DNA of 64,000 nt, filler included, from Sphacelaria rigidula (GCA_964200075.2; 6 parts of 6 records of this genome joined end to end with filler, not necessarily neighbours in it); one strand, 5' to 3'. Positions 50,732 through 64,000 are shown, numbered from the whole stretch's first letter. The notes: generated from the sequence alone by a model not told the origin. A program made the numbers and translations.

Positions 50732-53689
50732 AAAATGCTCTTTTTCAACGAAGCGTCAGCCACCATGATGCTTCGGTCCCCATACATGGAAAATCTTTGT
50801 TCACCTCACACGATAACCCCGCATCATGTGATGACAAATTCTGCTGTCTGAGAGTGTGAAGTAGAACAAACTGGTTCTCGGTCAATCCCGTATGTCCTTG
50901 AAGTCGCTGCCTGCTGCGTTTATCCTACGTCACCTGAAGATACGTGTCCACGCCGTTGGTGCAGCGGTTATCGCTAAACGACTGAGTTTGATGTCAGAGG
51001 TGCAGCTATAATCGCCCTGCCTTTATGTGGATTTTTCAGTACTGTAATACGGGTAATTAAGTACAATTGTCCGCCGTGAGCAGCCACGTCCCTGCATGAT
51101 CAATATCTTTCGGTTGACGAGGTCCTCTAACAGTTTGAAATGATGTTTCCACGCGAAGGCAAGGCACCCGTTCTACTCTGTTATGCTACAGTTGTGAACA
51201 GTAGCTATGGCTGTGATGCGAGTTGGCTCATGTAATGTTTGTAGACTATGTCTTCACGAGGAAACTCAACAAAAGGCAGCCATGCCGACGGTGACGCATG
51301 TCGAATACAGACAACAAATATCCGTATACATTTCATAGTATAAGTGGGGATGATTCGAAATTTTTCAAATTCAACTGACCGAGTCAAGCTACCGCATGCA
51401 TGCATTGATCTCGCGAAGCCGCATTTCTACAGCATCTGTGCACGATCACAACGCGTCTATAACAAGCTGTAATCTATGGAGGGAAAGGAAATGATGGCGT
51501 GTCTGCAATAAGCGCACATATGTATATCTATATCCTGGGGTGCAGGGTTGCCGTTGCAATGCTGCCCGCTTAATTTGGAGCTTGCTGTGCCCTGTTCAAA
51601 ATCGGAGATACTCTACACCATGTTCCCCGAATCAAACGTCCATGTATTGTACTGTCTGTTGCTGTTGAATTGGCATGAAAGCGGCCCATCTGCTCTGTGT
51701 GCGTCCCGTCACTAAACATGAGTTTTACTCAACGCTTGCACAGTGCACGACTCAGGCTGATACCCCACCTTCCTATAACCTGATGCGGCGCACTGTTGTC
51801 ATCTGATTGCTACCAGTTATCCCTCATCATTATCCTACATCAATCGTGCCTTACTGTTCGAAGAGATATTACCTCATGTCGCTAAAACCCGACCCACTTG
51901 AGCCAAATTTTCGGTCACCATGCATTCAGTACGCCCTATACACATTGCCATATAAATGCGGCAGGTTTTGAGATGTGATAGATGGTCTCCCGTACGCCTT
52001 GAAATAAAAACTTGCTCTCACGGGTGAGTGCACCGGATCGAAATGTGAAACTCGCACACAGCAATGAAAACGTTGAGGTGATGACCCTTGACACCCAGGG
52101 ATGTGAGTGAAACAAACAATGCTGCTCTATACACCGCGCAGAGGGGGGGCTGTAAGCCACCCTATCGTTGTGAGTATTAACCCTTTGACCACGAGGGTAA
52201 GTCACCTGCTGAATTGGCATCAGTATCCATTGGGGAAAAGTATACATAACGCAGATGGATTACCCGCACCACCGTCGAGGGTTCAAGCAACTGTACTGTG
52301 TTGTACTGTACTGTACTACTGCTGGATTTCGTATTGCACAAACGTTTGCATCGATGCTTGCGTTCTTCTGTTAGTCGTCCGGCATTTGCTTGCTCCCAAC
52401 GTGATCATTCATGTGCTGCGGAAAAAAATCTAACATACAGTACGATGGCCGAGAAACTACAATGTGGGTACCGATTTATTGCGCGACGCTGAATATATAT
52501 ATATCGTTCACTACAGTTGTCACGCGGTTCGATACTGTTGTGGTTGTTCCTAACCAGCACAGCTTCACCACCCCCCCGCCGTTACTCGATTCAAGAACCA
52601 ATCCTGTGATATTTTTGCGGCATACACCAAATATGTCATGTTACTAGCTGCATTTTCCACTCCCGCCTCCGAGGGCGGCTCGAATGGGAAAGAGAAGAAG
52701 CGATACAAAAATTTGAGTATCAACGGCGATGATATGTGCGCGGTAATACGATTTGATACTGTTACTATATAAGGGTCAAATCTTGTCGTGTAGACCTGAA
52801 TGAGTGGAGTCACGGTGGATGCTAGGATTGCATGACTCTCTGCACTGCTTTACTAAATCTTTCCATGCAACAGCTGTTGTGTTGCTTTTTCCAGCTTTGC
52901 TATATTCTTCGATGCAACACCTGCTGTAAGCCCGATTTCTGCTGTGCAATGCATCGGAAAGGAGCGATTTGCACTGCACAACTCAAAATGAAGTGAAACC
53001 TCTGTACCCGTTTCGCCCCGTTTACCGATACCAGCTGGACTTGAAGTTTTAAGTTGTTCACCTCAAGCCTGCGCAATGATACTCCTGCAGCTCCGTCGGT
53101 ATACGCTGAGATGAAATGATTATCTACACCGCTTTGATGTATTCTTGGATGACATAGCTGTACGACGCCATTTCGTTGTGAATATTGATCATGTTGACCA
53201 CGAGGGTAGGTCACCTGCTGAGTTAGCATCAGTATTCACTTGAAAAAGAGATATGCATGACGCAGAGGGACTACCCGCACCGCGGTCTAGAATTCACGAC
53301 GCCGTACTGTGTTGCACTGTCCGAACTGCTGCTTACAATCAACAGGGTTGCCAGAAAAATGAGAACGTATTTTGAAATGAGAATCCACCGCTCCCNNNNN
53401 NNNNNNNNNNNNNNNNNNNNNNNNNNNNNNNNNNNNNNNTTAATTAATTAANNNNNNNNNNNNNNNNNNNNNNNNNNNNNNNNNNNNNNNNNNNNTTTCT
53501 GCAATAGCTGGCCACTGAGGCCCTTGATATCCCTGAGTAGGATGTCGACGTGTAGCTGTAAGCACACGCAAGTGATGGAGGTAAAGAAAAACACACGTGG
53601 AATAAAAAAATGACTCGAATGATCAAAGCCACTCTCAATCGTATCATCTACTCTCAATCTCACGAAAACACTGTTAAAAGCGGGTCTTA

Positions 53690-54190
53690 GGCCGCTTCTT
53701 ATAACAGCCAAAAATAAAAATCTGAAAAAGTGCCTTTTTGGAGCTCTCACGTCGTCTTACGCCCCAAAAGAGAGCTAGGCGGATTTTAACACATCGGAAT
53801 AACTTGCTTTACTAATTGAGCCAGTTCCAGGACATCTCCCGTTTTCCGGTGACCGCAGTTTTCGTTTTGGCCAAACAAGAATTCTTGTCCAAGAACGGTA
53901 AAAAACAGTGAAAATCGCCACTTTTCTGTGGACTTGACTGTTCATGAAAATCGCCACTTTTCTGTGGACTCGACTGTTTATTACCGTTCGTGGACAATAA
54001 TTCTTGGTTGGCCAAAACGAAAACTGCGGTCACCGGAAAACGGGAAGATGTCCTGGAACCGCCTCAATTAGTAGAGCAAGTCATTTGGTGTCAAACTCCG
54101 CCCAGCTCTCTTTTGGGGCGTAAAATGACGTGGAAGGTCCAAAAAGGTACTTTTCCAGATTTTTATTTTTGTCTGTTGTAAGGAGCGGCC
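53690..54190. mobile_element. PIF/Harbinger (Tourist-like) MITE with long TIRs
   Basis: TTA|GGCCGC...GCGGCC|TTA with ~100-bp imperfect TIRs. Second copy at 39014-39489. Confidence 0.85.
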
Positions 54191-56299
54191 TTAGACCGTA
54201 TCTTATTAAAGAAAAATCGGCTCGAAAACATGCAGTCGAATCGAACTGGTCGTTACGAGGACGATTCTGATACGTCCACGGCATATTTATGTTCCTAGAT
54301 GACTTCAAATCCATTTTATAATTCGTTGCACGCAACGGGCAGGGTCAAAAACAGAAAAGCTCAGTTTTTTCGAGCGAAACGAGCGGCGGAATGAACGAAG
54401 CGGCACGTAACTCTCATGTTGCAGACAACTGTGCCAGATACTACCCTTTGACAGAGGTACCCAGAACCCAAATGGTTCATTCGCAGCTACCTACTCAACC
54501 TTGTGGCACAGGTCACGAACTGAGCGCAGGGAAACATACATCACAGTGATAGAAACTGACACCACTGTTGGGGCATGATGTGTTCCTTTTTGTTGGCGAA
54601 CACTTGGGCATCTAATTTTTTAGCAGGGTCCACCGACGGAGTTGCGTGTCGGGGTGGGCGATCGAATTGCCGACGCGCTCATGGACAGTAGAGGCGGTGC
54701 AAAACTGCACGTGGTTCGAATCTGCTTCGCATCCTCGTGTGTGCAGAGAGTCAGAAAGCTGTGCTGTTTGTCAAATCTGCTGTGTGTCGGGTTGCCCGCT
54801 TCTTTTCCACATCGCGCCCGCATGCTGTGCGAAACACACACAATCTGGACAGTACAGCACAGGTCCCCACTGTTGTACAGCCTGTACCGTCTATTGAATG
54901 TAGGTAAAGAAGTACCGCTTCACGAATTTCGCTTAGCCTTTTCGATTCAAATCGTGCAAATTCGCTCGGACCCAAACATAGCAAAGCAAAGTGAATCTAT
55001 TCCGCCGCACGAACTCGTTCGAAAATGTTTCAAGACACAGCCTCAGCCCGTGGTGCGTTTTGAAAAGAGGCCTACAGGTAGCGACAGAAGGCCTGAATCC
55101 TTTTCAACAGTAACAGCTAATTGAGTGTCGGAGGGTGGGGGGTGTACTCCTGATCTTGCATGCCGTAGTCACATGAACTTTGAACTCCTATCCCTACAAA
55201 GCTGTGGCGGAGCACGCCGGATTTTCGCCGGACCAAGGCTCATGGAGCGGGGGGGGGAAGGTGAGTAGGGGGGGGTCACCTGTTGAATCGGCATCATGTT
55301 GAGGGGATAAATGAAATCACACACGGTTATCCAGTGGGCAATCGAAGGATGTTAGATGTTGCAAACACTTCACGAGAGGTAGGGTTCATGCACGGAGGAT
55401 GTCGGTGCTGACAAGGCGAAGGTCCTGACCTTTGTTCACAGTGCTGGACTCCAGGCCCGGCGCAAATCAGTGCCGTGGACTCTCTTGTTGCATGGGGTGC
55501 GAGTGCGTTCTACCGGCGCTGTACTGTAGTTACTACTATTATAGCTAGTTGCTGCTGTACAGTAGTACAGTACAGTACACAAAGAGCAAATTGCACATGT
55601 TTTTCGTAGGCACCACTCCTGACTGTGTACTGCCCACCGTTGTGATAAGGCAGCAAAAAGGCGTCGATGGACCAACCGATTACTCGCCTCAAGCACCCGC
55701 ACCCTATCTAGTGCCTCAGGTGTAGATAAACCGAGTTGTGCTGTAGTGTGGAACTGTGAGAGAAAAGCCAAAGTCGGACCAGGAAGCTTTCTTTCGCCTC
55801 CTGCCGCCCGTCTCCTTTTTTTTTTTCTGCCCTTGTGATCGCACATCATAGATGCCAAGGACACGAATGAGCTCGTGTACAAGAGCACATGCTACATACA
55901 GCATTACTCACCGCTGAGCAAGGCTCTTCTTCTGTGCTTCCCTATCTCGGGCACGTCATGGTATGCTTCTTTGGGAGTTCCATCAACACTCATTACACAG
56001 GATGGTACGAACACGCGGGTTGTCGTGGAATCCATGACTGGTGATCCGGTTTCAAATGTCAGGTGATCATTTTCTGTGTTTTTTTCAGGGTTCTTTTTTA
56101 ATAGTCTTTCAAACGCCTCCGCGAAAAACGGTGAAAAGCGTTGGATGATGGCAAAAAACCCGATTCAGCAAGCACGGTCAGCACCTGCTGTGCATTCAAG
56201 AGCGGCCCAGACAGCATCCAAGAGCGGCCCAGACAGCATCGCCCAGGAGGAAGGAGGAGACGCATGAACAATCAAGGTGCGTTCATATATTGACAGAAA

Positions 56300-57560
56300 G
56301 TTCCTCTCGAAAATTTCAATGGCAACAGTGCTGTATGCAAGGAGTTAGGGCAGAATCCGTGCAGCTCAGGGTGAACATCACCCCCCTCGCTGAAACCTGA
56401 CCTCCGGTGTCATGGGAGAAGATGGCGCTCGACCTACACGATCAGGAGAGATACAGAGGAATGCTTCACCATGTGGGCAACGCAAACTTTCTGTTGCAAA
56501 AGATTTCGCTGAAATCCATCGCTGTCTAAAAATTCATGACTCGACTGAAGTTGAAGAAAGTTCAAATTTTGCTCCGCACCAGCACATGCGTGTAGTAGAG
56601 AGTCCCCTTCCTGCTCTACAAGCAGTTCACCCCAGTACAGTACAAGCGCGTGCAGCACAACACCATGCACCCTAGTGCAGCACACAACCACATAACTTCG
56701 TTGAGTGAAGTGTAGTGCAGCACAGAGTGTTGTACAGCCTGTGAAGTGCATTGTTCAGGTATGACCAGCGCCGAGTGCGGGAAGAAACAGTATGTACAGT
56801 ACCGCTGTAGTCGTGTCACGGTCTGGTCGAAGCCATCCGCATTCACGATGAGCGACATGCGGCCGTGGACCATGTGTAATTCTGCGGGTTAGGTACTCCA
56901 TGAAGGCAGGTATTCATCCCACCTGGTGCCTTTTTATTGTGCATGTATTGTACAGCCTGTGAAGTGCAATATTCGGGTATGACCAGCACCGAGTGCGGGA
57001 AGAAACAGTATGTACAGTACTACATGGCGGCCTTGTCGAAGCCATCCACAATCACGATGAGCGACATGCGGCCGTGGGTCATTTGTAATTCTTCGGGTTG
57101 AGTACTCCATGAAGAAAAGTATTGATCCCACCTGGCGCCTTTTCATTGCGCGTCGATAGCATGTTGGGAACCTGCACTCGGGTTCAGACGACCCCCTACG
57201 TGGAGCGAGAATGTCCGACTCATAAACGACACAGATTTCGAGTTGTGAACTTGGACAGTACATCAGTACGACGATCACATGCAGGATCATGAGATTAGAT
57301 GATGCGGCAACCAAAACTCCGTTATCGCTGGACAGTACAGTATTATAACCGCACGATTGAAGACATCTGTAATAAAAATAATTGACGTATGATCCCACAC
57401 GCATCCGCTCCCCCGCACATTCGCTTACCGTAGATGTGGAAGATCCCCAAGACTCACAGTTGGGGTGTAACGTCTGGAGCACTTTTGAGACGCCGGCCGG
57501 GGCAGACCGAACGTGAGATACGGCACCGCAATCTGTCTCAAGGTAAGAGCACACAATACT
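56300..57560 (-). mobile_element. Degraded CACTA/EnSpm-like (Transposase_21-type) transposase remnant
   Basis: The minus strand gives Cys-rich QKCSRRY...RCLQSCG, then DAQ*KGARWD...GRMSLIVNADGFD (resembles D-x3-G-x2-W ... L-x-x-N-x-DGF around the first catalytic Asp), and later IFERNF. Multiple stops. Confidence 0.4.
56730..57143. repeat. Tandem duplication of about 200 bp (period about 218 bp)
   Basis: tgtacagcctgtgaagtgca...cccacctggYgccttttt occurs at ~56730-56932 and ~56948-57143 as diverged copies. Confidence 0.9.
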
Positions 57561-57787
57561 CCTCGTACACTATTACCGTGCGAAATTGAAGTGCTGAAGA
57601 TCCAGCTCATCCGACTGCTTTCCTCTTGTTCCCGCTGATGACTGATATTTGAACTAAATTGAGGATGCCTACGTTTCGGGATATCATCATTGCACACGAA
57701 CCCGTGTCTTTTACAATCTAAAAATACAGAAGACTGCACGATTGATACGTTGTGTCAATCTATCATTTTCTCGTCTATTCCGGGCAG

Positions 57788-60700
57788 GTAATGAAGTGTC
57801 TACACCACTGTCGCCTCCATCCCGACCCACACATGCCACAACCGCGGTTGAAAGCAGATCTCCCCTGACGCACTCCGGATGTGCAGCACCGGTCGAAAAT
57901 GTGAGGGACATCGCCGAGGGTCACACCGGCGAACGAGCCAAACCGCAAAAGTGGCTGAGTCCCCGTTCCTACGGGAAAGATACGGCGACTGTGCTGTTCA
58001 GTGCGCCGGAGGCGTCCTTCGCGTCCAGTGATGGCGCATCTGTAAAAAAGCAGGGGTTGGACGGGTGCAATGACCATCCGAGTGCAGAAGGTGGTAACTT
58101 CAAATTTCGATCGGCCGGGGAAGGTGCGACTTGTGAAATCTCCATCACCTCGGCGTCAGAAAACAATGTACGGGAGGTGTTACCACGGAATCCGCCGACA
58201 GTATCTCTCAAGGAAGTGGGTAACACCCCCCGCAAAATCGGGAGAGCTGCCGGTGGTAAAGTCCCGGAGGTACAAGCTTGAACTCCATCGGCCAAGTCCG
58301 GCAGAGGCACACCACCACATGCTGGCATACGTGCATCGAGGCGGAAGAGAACCGCGACGAATAAGCCGGAGGTTAACAGCATATGGGGAGCGTGGCATGA
58401 ACAACAGCAGGGGGTGTTGCAGCACAGAAACGGCGTGAGGAAAGATCACCTGCTGGCAATACAATTTCCCGAGGAAGTGCCGATATCCGTATCCCCATAC
58501 AACTCAAGACGGGATCCTACTCGGGGCTCACCGGGGAGTTTTCCACGTCGGGACACCGTAACAAGTGACCAGGCTCACCATGCACCTCGCGACTAACTCC
58601 TGCAGGCGCGCCGGCGTCAAAATCGAAGCGGAAAAAGAAGGCTACATATGCTGCCGCCACTGAGGTCGACCAATGCAGAGTTGAAGGTGTCAGCAGCTCA
58701 TATTTCGCGGGTTCGGAACAAGAGCAGGTAGCGCCGGCACCTACGAACGGGGCTGCCAGCGAGCTAATGACGCATCCCGACCGCCGGGCAACACCCCCCG
58801 ATACTGATCGTAGTGAACATCGCGCGCGCGGTGAAAGAGGGAAATTGGCGACGTGACGCAGTAGTTCTCAAGGTCTCCCTGGGGAATCGTGATAGCTGCA
58901 GGGTGCGTGCTGTGCCGGCAGGGTCTACCCCTGTTAGTGGTATGAGGAGGGGGAAAGGACGTAAGCGGGTTTGCAGTCGTGATGTGTGTGGCATGCAGTG
59001 CCCCGTCTTCGACGACGAATGCAACACGTGCTCGTCTTACGGCCAGATACACGACCCGGCATCGCGGCTGTGCTTTGCCTGCCATCGACCAGGGCCCGGG
59101 GAAGGCAATGCCTGGCGTCATCTTGGCGCGGCGCGAATCACGGAGGCTCGGCAATTTCTAGAGTCGTGTGCGCATGATGATGGTGTACGCCCGACTGCGC
59201 TTGTGAAAAACTATCAACCGAGTTCAGATTGCTTGTGCAACCGGCATGATTCTTTTTGGCGCTCCATCGAGCGACACAGGATAACGAGTACTAGACGGAA
59301 GGCAAATTCTCTCCCTCCGGTTAGCTGCACACCCTTGACTGTTGGTTTAACATTCCCCCCCCTACCCCTGCCGAGCCGGACTTTGTTGCAGAGGTACACC
59401 AAAAAGTGATTGCGGCCGTTGGGGAGGGGCGTCTAGTGGGACTGGAGGATGTTTAATCCTGGCTGACCGAAGCCAGAACTGCAGTGAACGCCCGGGCTGT
59501 TCTAGACAAGCGCACCAGGGAGCAAGCGCTGAGAATTGTCGATGCGGTGGCCGCGGACGGCGCAGTCGACACCAAGCTTGAGAAGATAAGCGGGGTTGAT
59601 GCGGCTGTATGCGATGGGCGACGCAAGTTCATCTATCTCGTTCCTTCCGTGGTGGCGCCCGAGGTGTCCATTGCGGCCGGCGTTGAACTTCGTAACATGC
59701 GTACGAGGGTGAGAGACTTGGAGCGTTCTGTCTCCCGCCTCACCGCCGAGATGAAGACTGGTCAGCCTATTGAATACGCACTCCAGCGGGTGACAGCTGC
59801 CGGTTTGCAGAAGGATCAACGGGCCGTGGTCATAGCGGCTGGGTCTATCGTCAGGGTGGACATCGAAAGTGCACACGAACTGAGGAACGTATCGGGGGAT
59901 AGGGACCAGAAATACGCCGCCGGCACTGTTGGCATTGCTGAGCAGTCTATGCCATTTGCAAGTGTCGAGTGATGATCCGGACTTGCTTTTTACGACAGTG
60001 GATGAAGCAAGGAGCGGTAGGCAAGGGGATTCTGTTCATGCGTCTCGCACCGCTGGGGCGGATGATGTCGACATGTCGGCGGCGCGGGATGGCGGGGCGG
60101 GTTTGATGGGCACCGCAAGCAGGTGTGGTGGTGGAACGGCGCAACACGAACACAGGGGCGCAGCTCAAGGGGGATCGGCGATGTTCCTCGCCAGCGCAAG
60201 GACACACGGATCGACCCTGCGGGGAAAGGCGCTGCGCAAGAAGATGAGGAAGAGGAAGAGGCGGATTAGGAGACTGTACATCCTCGTGCAAAACCTCGTC
60301 GAAACTGTTTCAGGCCGAGGTTTTCGCACAATGCACGACTTCCATCTAGCGCAGGTGTCGAAAACGCACGGCACACCCGTGACTTGTCATCGACTACGTC
60401 GCCGCCCATGGATTCTGCATGTCAGAGTCGATGCGGTACAAGCGGAAACAGTTCTACGTGAAGTGGAGGATGGACAGACATGCCATGGCCCTCGCATTAC
60501 GGGTTGCTGCGATTCCTTGGGACAACTGCGATTTTTGGCCGACGACGAGTGTCACGGGGGTCGGGGCACATGTCAATACTACAGCGGCCACCTGCGTGGC
60601 CGTGGAGAATCTGCCCGGGCATCTATCGCTCATGCACGCGCACCGCTGGCAAGGTGATCTGGTGGCCGCGGATTTCACGACGGGACCCTCCTGGCACAGG

Positions 60701-62370
60701 GACGGTCAGTAATGGAAGTGTTTCCTCTCCGTATTCGACGATGCAGCATTCTGTTGCGCGGTGGCGAGGATCGCAGGTGAAGGTGGCCACATCGAAACGT
60801 GCTTGGAGATCGAACTCAGACAGATGAACAGAGTTGGCAATTTTTGGGTGCTCAGTAGTTGGTCGGGATATTAGTGTCGAAAGATGGCGAGATCACGCAC
60901 CTGTGCGTGGGGCGCCGTGTTGCGTCTGACATGATAATATTTAGATATTGGAGCCGAGCTCGCATCAACATCAGGCTGTTTACACTTGAGCTAGGGTTAG
61001 GGTTAGGTGATGACATAATTTCGCGTGGACGCCGCGCACGGGTAATCCAACTGTATTTGCTCTTACCGAGTAGGTTGTCAAGATGCGGATTCGAAATCCC
61101 TAGATATGCCGTTTCTGCGTTTTCTACCCGGTACCGGGATTTCGAATCCGCACCTTGCAAGAGATTAGGAGAAGGATCTGTGGAAACATTTCAGGGAATG
61201 CACGAGTGCTTCTCCTATTCCCGACGCATGCTTTAAAGTCGCGCGCAGCGGAAGGTATTCCATGGTGCGACGTGCGCACCTCGGAGAATGGCATGGATTC
61301 AAGGTGTGGGGGTGGACAAATGCCTAACGGAGTGTATACCCTGCATCATCCGCGCTCGTGTGATCTCATCGTCGACTTCCCCCACTAGGCGATACCGATG
61401 ATGCAGAGGGAGCCGCAGGTGTTCGAGTACCTCTTCATGCAATTGGGCACCACGAAGAGTTGGTCTGACTTGAAGGCCGCCATCGACCGTCTTGCTGATA
61501 TACGCCACGTGGACGAGAGGGCGCGGCGGCGGCATGCATGGTAGCCGGCGATGAGGAGACATGTCGCTTCATGTATCACCTGATTCGGAGTAACCCCGGC
61601 CACTATCACCGGCTCAAAGTATACGTGGGTGATTGGCACCTTCTGTACCACATGGCGAAGGCCATCATGAACCGGTTTTGAGGGGCAGGGATAGACTTCA
61701 TCGCTGAGGCACTTGGCGTGGACGGAACCAAAGGATCGGAGGCTAGCAACGATCGGGTGGCACACCATACCATCAGCGTGTTCTTCGAAGCAATATGGGG
61801 GAAAATCGTGGCCATGTACGACCCCTAACCCTAATGGTCCGAACCCTGAGATGCGCGTGCAAGCCCGAAAGGGCGGCGCAAAGAAATCACCAGTGCCGCG
61901 GTTGCAAGGGCCGCTGCGTTTTACCCCCACCCCCTTCCCCAGCGACTGACGCTACTTCTACAGGTGGTTCCGCCGGAGGATATGTCGATACATGCCGCCG
62001 ACGTCGTAAGAGGAGGGGCGGATCCACGGCGAGCCGTGGAAGGGACGGGTCAGCAGCGTTGTGTGGCGGGGGGCAGGCGAATCGAGCGAGGAAGGCCGCG
62101 GGGGCAGGTGGTGATAGAAGTCGTCGTGGGGAGTGCTTCCGACGAGATGGTGGGAGGATGGCGACGGTAGCGGGAGGGGAATCGGATCCGGGACCACATC
62201 CTACCAGTCGCAGTTGTTGCGACGGCGGTCTAGATGGTCCCACAGAGCGCGAATCGAAGCATTCAGCCGGGATCCGGCTTGGGGATTCAGACTCCGAGAG
62301 TAGCGACTCAGAGGTAGAGGATTCGGCATCGGAAGCAGGCAAAGACGACGACGACGAATTCGCGTTTTGA
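57788..62370 (+). mobile_element. Degraded Academ-like DNA transposase gene (pseudogenised, internally deleted)
   Basis: Colinear motifs across stops and frameshifts: Cys-rich N-terminus (58970-59270), AAGSIVRVDI, HGT..LVIDYVAAHGFCMS (~60370-60425), WDNCDF...GAHVNT (60518-), VAGDEETC (61541-), VGDWHLLYHMAKAI...GAGI (61625-), a C-terminal CACK...CRGCKGRC and an acidic tail ending at 62370. The family match is from recalled consensus, not a search. Confidence 0.7.
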
Positions 62371-64000
62371 TTGCATCTATAGCGAAAGTCGTGGACATGT
62401 TTCTTGCAGATGAGTTTCGTAGGTATATAGGTAACCGTGGGAGTTATCTTCTGCAGACGGAAGTCATGATCCATGCGTAGGGTTGATGGGGAAGTTGTAG
62501 AGTGCTTGATGCAGTGCGCCCTTGTGTGCAAACGTTTACGGCGGGTCGTCCGGCGACACCCTTGGGCGAATCGCCGGTTGTATCTCAAGATAATGCGTGA
62601 TACTAATGGAACGAACGACTAATAAAGCGAAAATGATGATCAAGACGTGGTGTTGTAGAGAACCTTATGGAATACTGTGCAACACGACCACCACACGTTC
62701 GTGGAGTCGTGAGACGGCGTTCATAGCGCTCTGCACAGCGGGCGAACCGCCACAAACATTTGGTGTGATTGATAACAATCGATCGTGAAAATTGAGGACA
62801 GCGGTTTTCATTGACGATTATAAGTAGGTTTATTACAATCTTCATATGTGTGGACCATTTTTTAAAATATGCCTGCATTCATGCACGTACTGGTAGCTAT
62901 TACTAATTTCTGCATGCCATACAAAATTGAAATCCGTTAACAGATTTTTTGGGGTCCCATGTATATATGTTGTGTGGTGATGGGGGGGGGTACGTGATGT
63001 AAATGGAACACGTAAATCCATCCTCCATGTCGCAGAACAGTGGTTCCACGTAAATCCATCCTCCACGTCGCAGAACAGTGGTTCCAAGTGCTGCACGCTG
63101 GAGGAACATCAGATGATGTTCTCCGTCCCTAACCCTTCATTATTGCCCACCAAACTTCGGTCCCCATCACACCGGACAGTCGATGTGAATACCTATGCTT
63201 CGAAGCAAACCCTGACGCCGTTTCCGTGGTATCTCTATTTTGTTTCCGACAGCTTACAGTATTACTGACGACACCAGGAATCGGCAGACCGTGAGTGTGC
63301 GTTTATACCTTGCGCGGCGATCCCGTAAGCACGCTTCATGCGCCGTCCCGGTGACTATGACGAGCACATGTCTGGAACGTCTTTCCCACTGGCGGGCAAT
63401 ATTAATTGTTGCATGCATGCTTGGGGGAGAAAATAATCCCCACGCAACAAACCAGGAGGACGCGTCGCATTTACTACCTGCTCAATGTGGATATCACATG
63501 TGACCCGATGGGTTTTCACGCCGCACCTCACACAATGCAACACCCCTCACCGAGATAGCAATATCTCAATGCACACGGCAGCTATCGACACAAATCAAAT
63601 TGCTCTGTGTGGATAAAACGTGTACCTACCAGTCCTCCACTTCTTGGCGGCCAACACTCTTGTCTAAAAATTGAAGTGAAGATCATCTACTGCAGATATT
63701 GCACTGTTTCGACACTCAATTGAAGTCTGCCAGGGCTTGAACGACGGCTAGTGTCTTGTAGTACCTGTCTGTAGAGTTTCGGCTTCGTGAAGTTCGTCAG
63801 TAGTGAGTAATCTTCTGTCGCGTGAAGGACGGGCATGTTGGAAAATGACTTTTTTGCTTGTACATATAGTTACAACTTTCTTTAGGGGTATCCATCGCTG
63901 GTTTGTGAGCTGTACTGGGTGGAATCAAGCCAGACTACAATCAGAAGGTAGCTTCAGACATCTACTACAGCTGTGTATCGCCTTAGTTGCGATATAACCT

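Follow-up and report, generated by a model that had tools for sequence, protein, structure and literature searches.

A probable internally deleted copy of an Academ-type transposon in the brown alga Sphacelaria rigidula, whose undeleted relatives combine a transposase with a predicted 5' nuclease

Positions 57788 to 62370 of a 64,000-nucleotide (nt) stretch of DNA from the brown alga Sphacelaria rigidula (GCA_964200075.2; six parts joined end to end with filler, hereafter the window) hold several separate open reading frames, which an earlier note had read as one decayed gene for an Academ-like transposase. This raises the question of what kind of sequence these frames are the remains of. Academ, among the least studied of the cut-and-paste superfamilies, was previously known in animals, fungi and a single red alga. 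We found that the locus is very probably a dead, internally deleted member of a multicopy DNA transposon family in which copies without the deletion encode an Academ-type transposase together with a predicted 5' nuclease, in a brown algal host. Positions are those of the whole window, and the element lies on contig G000:C6374, one of the contigs of approximately 10.6 kb that make up the window, whose end is window position 64000.

A 95-amino-acid (aa) piece encoded at 61541-61825 had 94 matches in the 244-Mb genome of the same alga, with identities from 100% down to approximately 32%, and the sequence therefore belongs to a repeat family and not to a single-copy gene. The contrary outcome named in the earlier note, a single-copy host gene without terminal inverted repeats (TIRs) or target-site duplications (TSDs), is the opposite of what was found, as the family has both. 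Longer copies revealed what the window has lost. Approximately 4.5 kb that are absent from the window were present in contigs C7946, C3961, C5246 and C4632 and partly present in C10900, C10716 and C17007. After the GDWH motif, the undeleted order continued with a low-complexity insert carrying an EsV-1-7-like Cys motif, followed by RxGNF and GLDERQE (the latter with the catalytic Glu), a domain with GEGE, DTD and GCDF, a Cys cluster and an acidic tail. According to these copies, the parent gene has five exons, and its product starts with a Cys-rich N-terminus, continues with a DDE transposase (DUF6589) and a FEN/XPG/Xrn-fold nuclease and closes with a Cys-rich tail; from exon lengths summed over several copies, the protein would comprise about 2,800 aa and the element about 12.5 kb.

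In the window, the region corresponding to C7946 3918-8444 is replaced by a filler of 13-15 nt, and the missing part includes the catalytic Glu and the nuclease domain. The window copy is therefore a deletion derivative and not a complete decayed gene, although the decayed coding remnants had been recognized correctly. The tail proposed to follow the core was also found, with the Cys-rich part from 61852 and the acidic part to 62370, but its adjacency to the core arises only through the deletion at 61820-61834. The Academ-type motif order (DNxD, GD, GxWH or GxFH, DExxE) was complete in the undeleted copies, whereas the last motif was missing from the window copy. An identical deletion junction was present in 11 of the 20 best matches, so that the deleted subfamily comprises at least 11 copies.

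The ends of the element were then evident from other copies. Both termini were CAGTGTTACGCC; two exact patterns gave 85 and 48 matches, and the reversed controls gave none. These TIRs occurred at both ends of 13 copies, with exact TSDs of 4 bp in six and of 5 bp in one, TSDs with one mismatch in four (two at 4 bp and two at 5 bp) and none in two; a 9-10-bp duplication was seen in 0 of the 13. A second, non-matching end pairing on C747, with the end of the host copy, was left out of this count. In particular, a two-ended 7.5-kb member (C747 3914-11395, L073/L072) was nested within the right subterminal region of another member and flanked by a TTGT duplication, and comparison with the empty site in the window and in other copies revealed that exactly 4 bp had been added. 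We found no target-site preference in 69 flanks. The two ends were unequal, since the terminal core AGTGTYACG was repeated at +19/20 in 41 of 43 right ends (e.g., L055 and L050) and in none of 26 left ends. One hexamer was common to both ends (median +44 on the left and +54 on the right, with a variable left spacer), where approximately two are expected by chance between 95-nt ends. Ends of the Academ superfamily are of the YAG..CTR type. TSDs of 3-4 bp for AcademX and of 9-10 bp for AcademH are given in PMC10045372.

Assignment to the nuclease-bearing AcademX type was thus supported by the fused nuclease, the mostly 4-bp TSDs and the absence of any visible helicase. AcademX was reportedly described by Kapitonov and Jurka in 2010 and by Kojima in 2020. 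Like AcademX, the family had one protein running from the DDE core through a FEN/XPG-fold nuclease to a Cys tail, as well as short TIRs and mainly 4-bp TSDs, and its motif order was the same as in the Branchiostoma and Lytechinus proteins. In contrast to AcademX, the family is brown algal, forms a separate clade, has four introns and places the first catalytic Asp near residue 950; its nuclease contains GEGE, some duplications are 5 bp long, the window copy lacks the Glu and the nuclease, and family A, to which the window copy belongs, has an approximately 270-aa low-complexity insert with the EsV-1-7-like motif inside the transposase. With AcademH, the helicase-bearing type of fungi and animals, the family shared a DUF6589-type transposase core, but the TSD was 4-5 bp rather than 9-10 bp, and no helicase family match was found in the 19 long frames scanned; the nuclease fills the C-terminal part. 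As to whether an XPG-like nuclease or a helicase is carried, a point raised by the earlier note, the undeleted copies thus pointed to the former.

DUF6589 was above the cut-off in two of ten paralog frames (28.1 and 27.3 bits) and below it in two of nine family-A or other frames; the DUF6589 part of the profile check that had been proposed was therefore positive for the paralogs, whereas the window pieces gave nothing significant. The first-Asp piece of the window matched a profile built without family A at E 1.3e-9, compared with 0.34 for the reversed control. A model of the transposase core from homolog P0173 (predicted local distance difference test, pLDDT, 79) was most similar to the P element transposase, with a Z-score of 8.9 and a root mean square deviation (rmsd) of 6.8 over 354 aligned residues, followed by integrases and Hermes. 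The Drosophila P element transposase (6p5a), Hermes and RAG1/Transib share with the family an RNase H fold and a large helical insertion between the second Asp and the Glu; at 7-11% identity and a Z-score of at most 8.9, the likeness is one of fold only. The proposal of an Academ-type transposase was thus borne out by DUF6589 in the paralogs, homology to animal proteins with DUF6589, nuclease and TCR domains, TIRs with 4-bp TSDs and the RNase H/DDE-type fold of the homolog model.

A model of the C-terminal domain from an Ectocarpus homolog (pLDDT 73) matched XRN1/2 (E 2e-4), Exo1 and FEN1 in Foldseek, and with VIA it matched Xrn1 (Z 14.3, rmsd 4.7 over 314 residues), Exo1 (10.5) and XPG (9.3); GEN1 was a further match of the model. 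Family-A pieces matched the modelled homolog at E 1e-13 and 1e-34. Judged from this model, the domain clearly belongs to the FEN/XPG/Xrn fold family. Sequence searches against the Protein Data Bank gave only Exo1 at E 0.07 and otherwise nothing useful, a word-indexed search of the nuclease half against longer proteins gave no matches, and in the atlas the core lay next to DUF6589 clusters, whereas the neighbours of the nuclease were TCR clusters or clusters without a name. Xrn1 and Xrn2, which are 5'-3' exoribonucleases, were the best model matches, and the GEGE and GxDFLP motifs resemble those of these enzymes. We therefore considered whether this is an old, uncatalogued brown algal Academ lineage whose nuclease is Xrn-like rather than XPG-like and would act on RNA or RNA-DNA hybrids in transposition or regulation; we consider this unlikely. 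If it were true, the reading of the whole AcademX group would change from action on DNA flaps to action on RNA or hybrids. The most frequent part of the family was the C-terminal half of the nuclease: scoring of 150 of its 192 candidates gave at least 149 matches, whereas the second-Asp region had 94 and the pre-Glu region 59. Nuclease-only helper elements were rejected because only three of 20 contigs keep the whole N-terminal half (two keep part of it) and dN/dS, the ratio of nonsynonymous to synonymous change, was 0.53 between close pairs.

Several observations weigh against the interpretation as an AcademX-type element. None of 12 window pieces had a Pfam match below E 0.05, and the family call therefore rests on the longer paralogs; the first-Asp piece had no direct BLAST match to the Ectocarpus protein (E 0.61). 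Both structure models are of brown algal homologs and not of family A, and Foldseek gave no match for the transposase model at E<=0.001, with Hermes and RAG1 on top. We take DUF6589 to denote Academ, and the animal homologs with DUF6589 and nuclease are presumably AcademX. An exact duplication was missing in six of the 13 two-ended copies, and three copies resembled 5 bp. Finally, no complete unbroken family-A copy was found among the contigs examined, and no single deleted copy was observed with both ends.

With the C10900 core exon as query, a HMMER scan yielded 467 matches at E<=0.001. Among the matches looked up, the named relatives were Ectocarpus proteins, followed by Branchiostoma, Lytechinus, Sycon and a single Prasinocladus record; a separate search added an Undaria protein, and the Ectocarpus and Undaria proteins were the nearest named relatives. 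DUF6589 was present in 24 of 25 matches scanned, three of which also had the TCR Cys domain; in the animal homologs, a TCR-like Cys domain forms the C-terminus. When 49 cores were placed in a tree, the families of this genome were interleaved with those of Ectocarpus and Undaria, and this clade was separated from the animal proteins with 100/99 support, which agreed with the divergent stramenopile lineage predicted earlier. The tree was midpoint-rooted, without an outgroup or a labelled Academ, contained many unnamed rows and used matches chosen by an algal query; five proteins that lacked a motif were left out, and four of the 59 rows of alignment A1 (first-Asp exon pieces) were misplaced. 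The interleaving suggests that the family has resided in brown algae for a long time, and by itself it would point to a brown algal host. The earlier description of the N-terminal region as unusually long was modestly supported: the first Asp was at residue 940-975 or thereabouts in the family and at 435-794 in the seven proteins outside the algal clade in which the motif was found.

The separation of this clade, together with only 25-30% identity to the animal proteins, marginal DUF6589 scores and GEGE in the algal nuclease where animal proteins have HEESD/EEAD, would also fit a lineage of superfamily rank that shares a DUF6589-type core and should not be filed under Academ. However, the domain order is the same as in the animal proteins, the first Asp, second Asp, GDWH, Glu, nuclease motifs and Cys tail are alignable across algal and animal proteins, and the TSD length fits AcademX, which makes a separate lineage distinctly improbable. 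In the same tree, P0025 (CAB1112218.1) and P0065 formed a second, deeply split algal core branch, sister to the other 20 algal-clade rows, and the unnamed animal-clade homologs P0121 and P0144 had an OTU-like protease domain beside the transposase core.

The more distant families B (C16536 and C20591) and C (C12991, C9893 and C4986) had the same layout as family A, with some unbroken frames of 500-925 aa. Family B copies on C16536 (1123-7089, L092) and C20591 (L094) contained three consecutive unbroken coding exons (296, 508 and 925 aa), with the 5' part off the contig, and are the best candidates for a recently active element. In family C (C12991 2106-3509, L091), the intron that in families A and B lies between the first Asp and the second was absent, an intron gain or loss within the clade.

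The 11 deleted copies were 91-96% alike and formed one tree group (FastTree 0.945). Among them, dN/dS was 0.73-0.78, compared with 0.68-0.88 for an intron control, and the deleted subfamily is drifting nearly neutrally. Between subfamilies, dN/dS was 0.10-0.22 for the core, 0.11-0.19 for the nuclease and 0.28-0.38 for the Cys/His-rich region, and both enzyme domains of the parent are under purifying selection; these values are simple pooled counts over pairs that are not independent. Contigs from public sequencing runs, whose kind is not recorded and some of which are presumably RNA, supported the introns that had been suspected, as did comparison of copies. On C7946, a further GT..AG joint was present in three runs and missing from the fourth, a large, DNA-like run. 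As the run contigs derive from many copies, they indicate that the family is spliced and do not prove expression of the window copy. Splicing, apparent transcription and purifying selection between subfamilies might also be expected of the pseudogene of a host gene domesticated from a transposase, but the copies number in the dozens, are dispersed among unrelated flanks and have TIRs, TSDs and, in one case, a nested insertion, and selection is nearly absent within the window's own subfamily, which leaves this explanation with very little probability.

The EsV-1-7-like Cys motif in the undeleted family-A transposase (best E 1.4e-4, under the cut-off) raises a further alternative, namely that the element is part of, or was brought by, an integrated giant virus (phaeovirus). 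[quoted passage not shown] We consider a viral origin highly improbable, no search of viral collections having been made.

For the Academ-type transposon that we favour, the following course is proposed. By analogy, the protein of about 2,800 aa would bind the CAGTGTTACGCC ends, likely via its Cys-rich regions, and, as in known DDE enzymes, the D-D-E triad would cut and join, leaving a 4-bp stagger. The fused FEN/XPG-fold domain is predicted, with less support, to trim 5' flaps or overhangs of intermediates in excision or insertion, a role also proposed for AcademX. One copy would then have lost 4.5 kb, the break being patched with a short CCCTAA-containing filler. The telomere-type repeat of brown algae is TTAGGG, and the filler may be a captured repeat of this type or a copy of a nearby AACCCT. 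The deleted derivative would have kept both ends and, probably mobilized in trans, reached at least 11 sites. Such multiplication in trans fits the TIRs in view on deleted copies, the left one on C13000 and the right one on C3920. The window copy would afterwards have decayed and lost its left end.

The window copy represents the left 7.9 kb of an approximately 8-kb non-autonomous derivative (Table 1). No left TIR was recognizable ahead of 56091, where the left-end homology begins, and, judged from C3920 and C10406, the right TIR lies 83-84 bp past the contig end; the earlier statement that the contig holds no TIR pair was thus correct, although the family does have TIRs. The peptides quoted in the earlier note were all present on the + strand (GFCMSE at 60410, WDNCD at 60518, AGDEE at 61544, GDWH at 61628 and F*GA at 61676), but the coding region begins one exon earlier, at the likely start ATG (57434). 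We counted six frame breaks, six in-frame stops and a dead splice donor (AT). The frameshift placed near 60380 is at about 60383 (+1), the one placed near 61540 is actually at about 61518 (-1), and four more are at about 58532, 58880, 59352 and 59913. Exon 3 alone had five frame breaks and five stops, whereas its counterpart in C8481 is a single open frame of 1059 aa. In the Cys/His-rich region, Pfam zinc-ribbon matches were below significance. An autonomous element requires an intact DDE gene and both ends; with the Glu deleted, frame breaks, stops and no left TIR, the window copy supplies no enzyme, and because it is decayed and has lost its left end, it is likely now immobile.

Table 1. Parts of the deleted element in the window.
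Feature	Position	Strand	Evidence
Deleted Academ-type element body	56091..64000	+	Left-end homology to other copies from 56091; C3920 and C10406 match to 64000
Exon 1, likely 5' untranslated	56091..56276	+	GT..AG joint 56274>57432 (contigs of 3/4 runs); frame unconserved among copies
Intron 1 (GT..AG), containing a 209-bp tandem duplication	56277..57433	+	Run contigs and copy comparison
Exon 2 (109 nt), beginning with the likely start ATG (57434); frame MWKIPK.. open	57434..57542	+	Loose ends linking exon 2 to 57788 in 4/4 runs
Intron 2 (GT..AG)	57543..57787	+	Run-contig joints, copy comparison
Exon 3: long low-complexity N-terminus, Cys-rich region, helical region, first catalytic Asp	57788..60823	+	
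Cys/His-rich region, predicted zinc-binding	58970..59260	+	Pattern recurs in families A, B and C
WDNCD motif, first catalytic Asp at 60521-60523	60518..60532	+	Aligns with DNxD of Ectocarpus and animal proteins
Intron 3 (565 nt), donor AT in window copy versus GT in C7946 and C10900	60824..61388	+	Run-contig joints spanning 60824-61388
Exon 4 remnant: second catalytic Asp at 61550-61552, GDWH at 61628-61639; one frame break, one stop	61389..61819	+	
Deletion junction, 13-15-nt filler holding CCCTAACCCTAA	61820..61834	+	C7946 3918-8444 absent
Last-exon remnant: C-terminal Cys cluster and acidic tail, stop at 62368-62370	61835..62370	+	
3' untranslated and right subterminal region; 63811-63818 is the empty site for the nested C747 insertion	62371..64000	+	

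Taken alone, the window copy is an unremarkable dead derivative, and the family is a new host lineage of a known superfamily. It is likely uncatalogued. The word Academ was absent from the accessible text and five supplements of the 2025 curated Ectocarpus transposon catalogue (PMC12477816), which covers mainly abundant families, and no matching family was found in its section 5 and family-table parts 2-3, consensus sequences not being compared. The accessible parts of PMC5751038, PMC12973397 and bioRxiv 2021.09.26.461848 likewise did not place Academ in brown algae. Ectocarpus siliculosus CBJ31386.1 (P0175) and unnamed Ectocarpus and Undaria proteins, approximately 30-40% identical to family A, have the same core, nuclease and clade and are filed as unknown or mislabelled host proteins rather than as transposases; CBJ31386.1, an Academ-type transposase-nuclease, is labelled 'similar to solute carrier family 35 member F4'. 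Their re-identification aids brown algal repeat annotation, and the nuclease-bearing Academ type is extended to a further eukaryotic supergroup, with its ends and target duplication defined there. With their long open frames, the young family B copies (C16536 and C20591) could be used to probe the role of the fused nuclease.

Two minor features were also observed. A short TAGGGT tandem at 60992-61007, inside intron 3, was common to six close copies. Outside the element, an inverted repeat at 53683-54197, with 110-nt arms that are 87% complementary and a second inner pair, resembles a miniature inverted-repeat transposable element of about 515 bp and has matches on other contigs.

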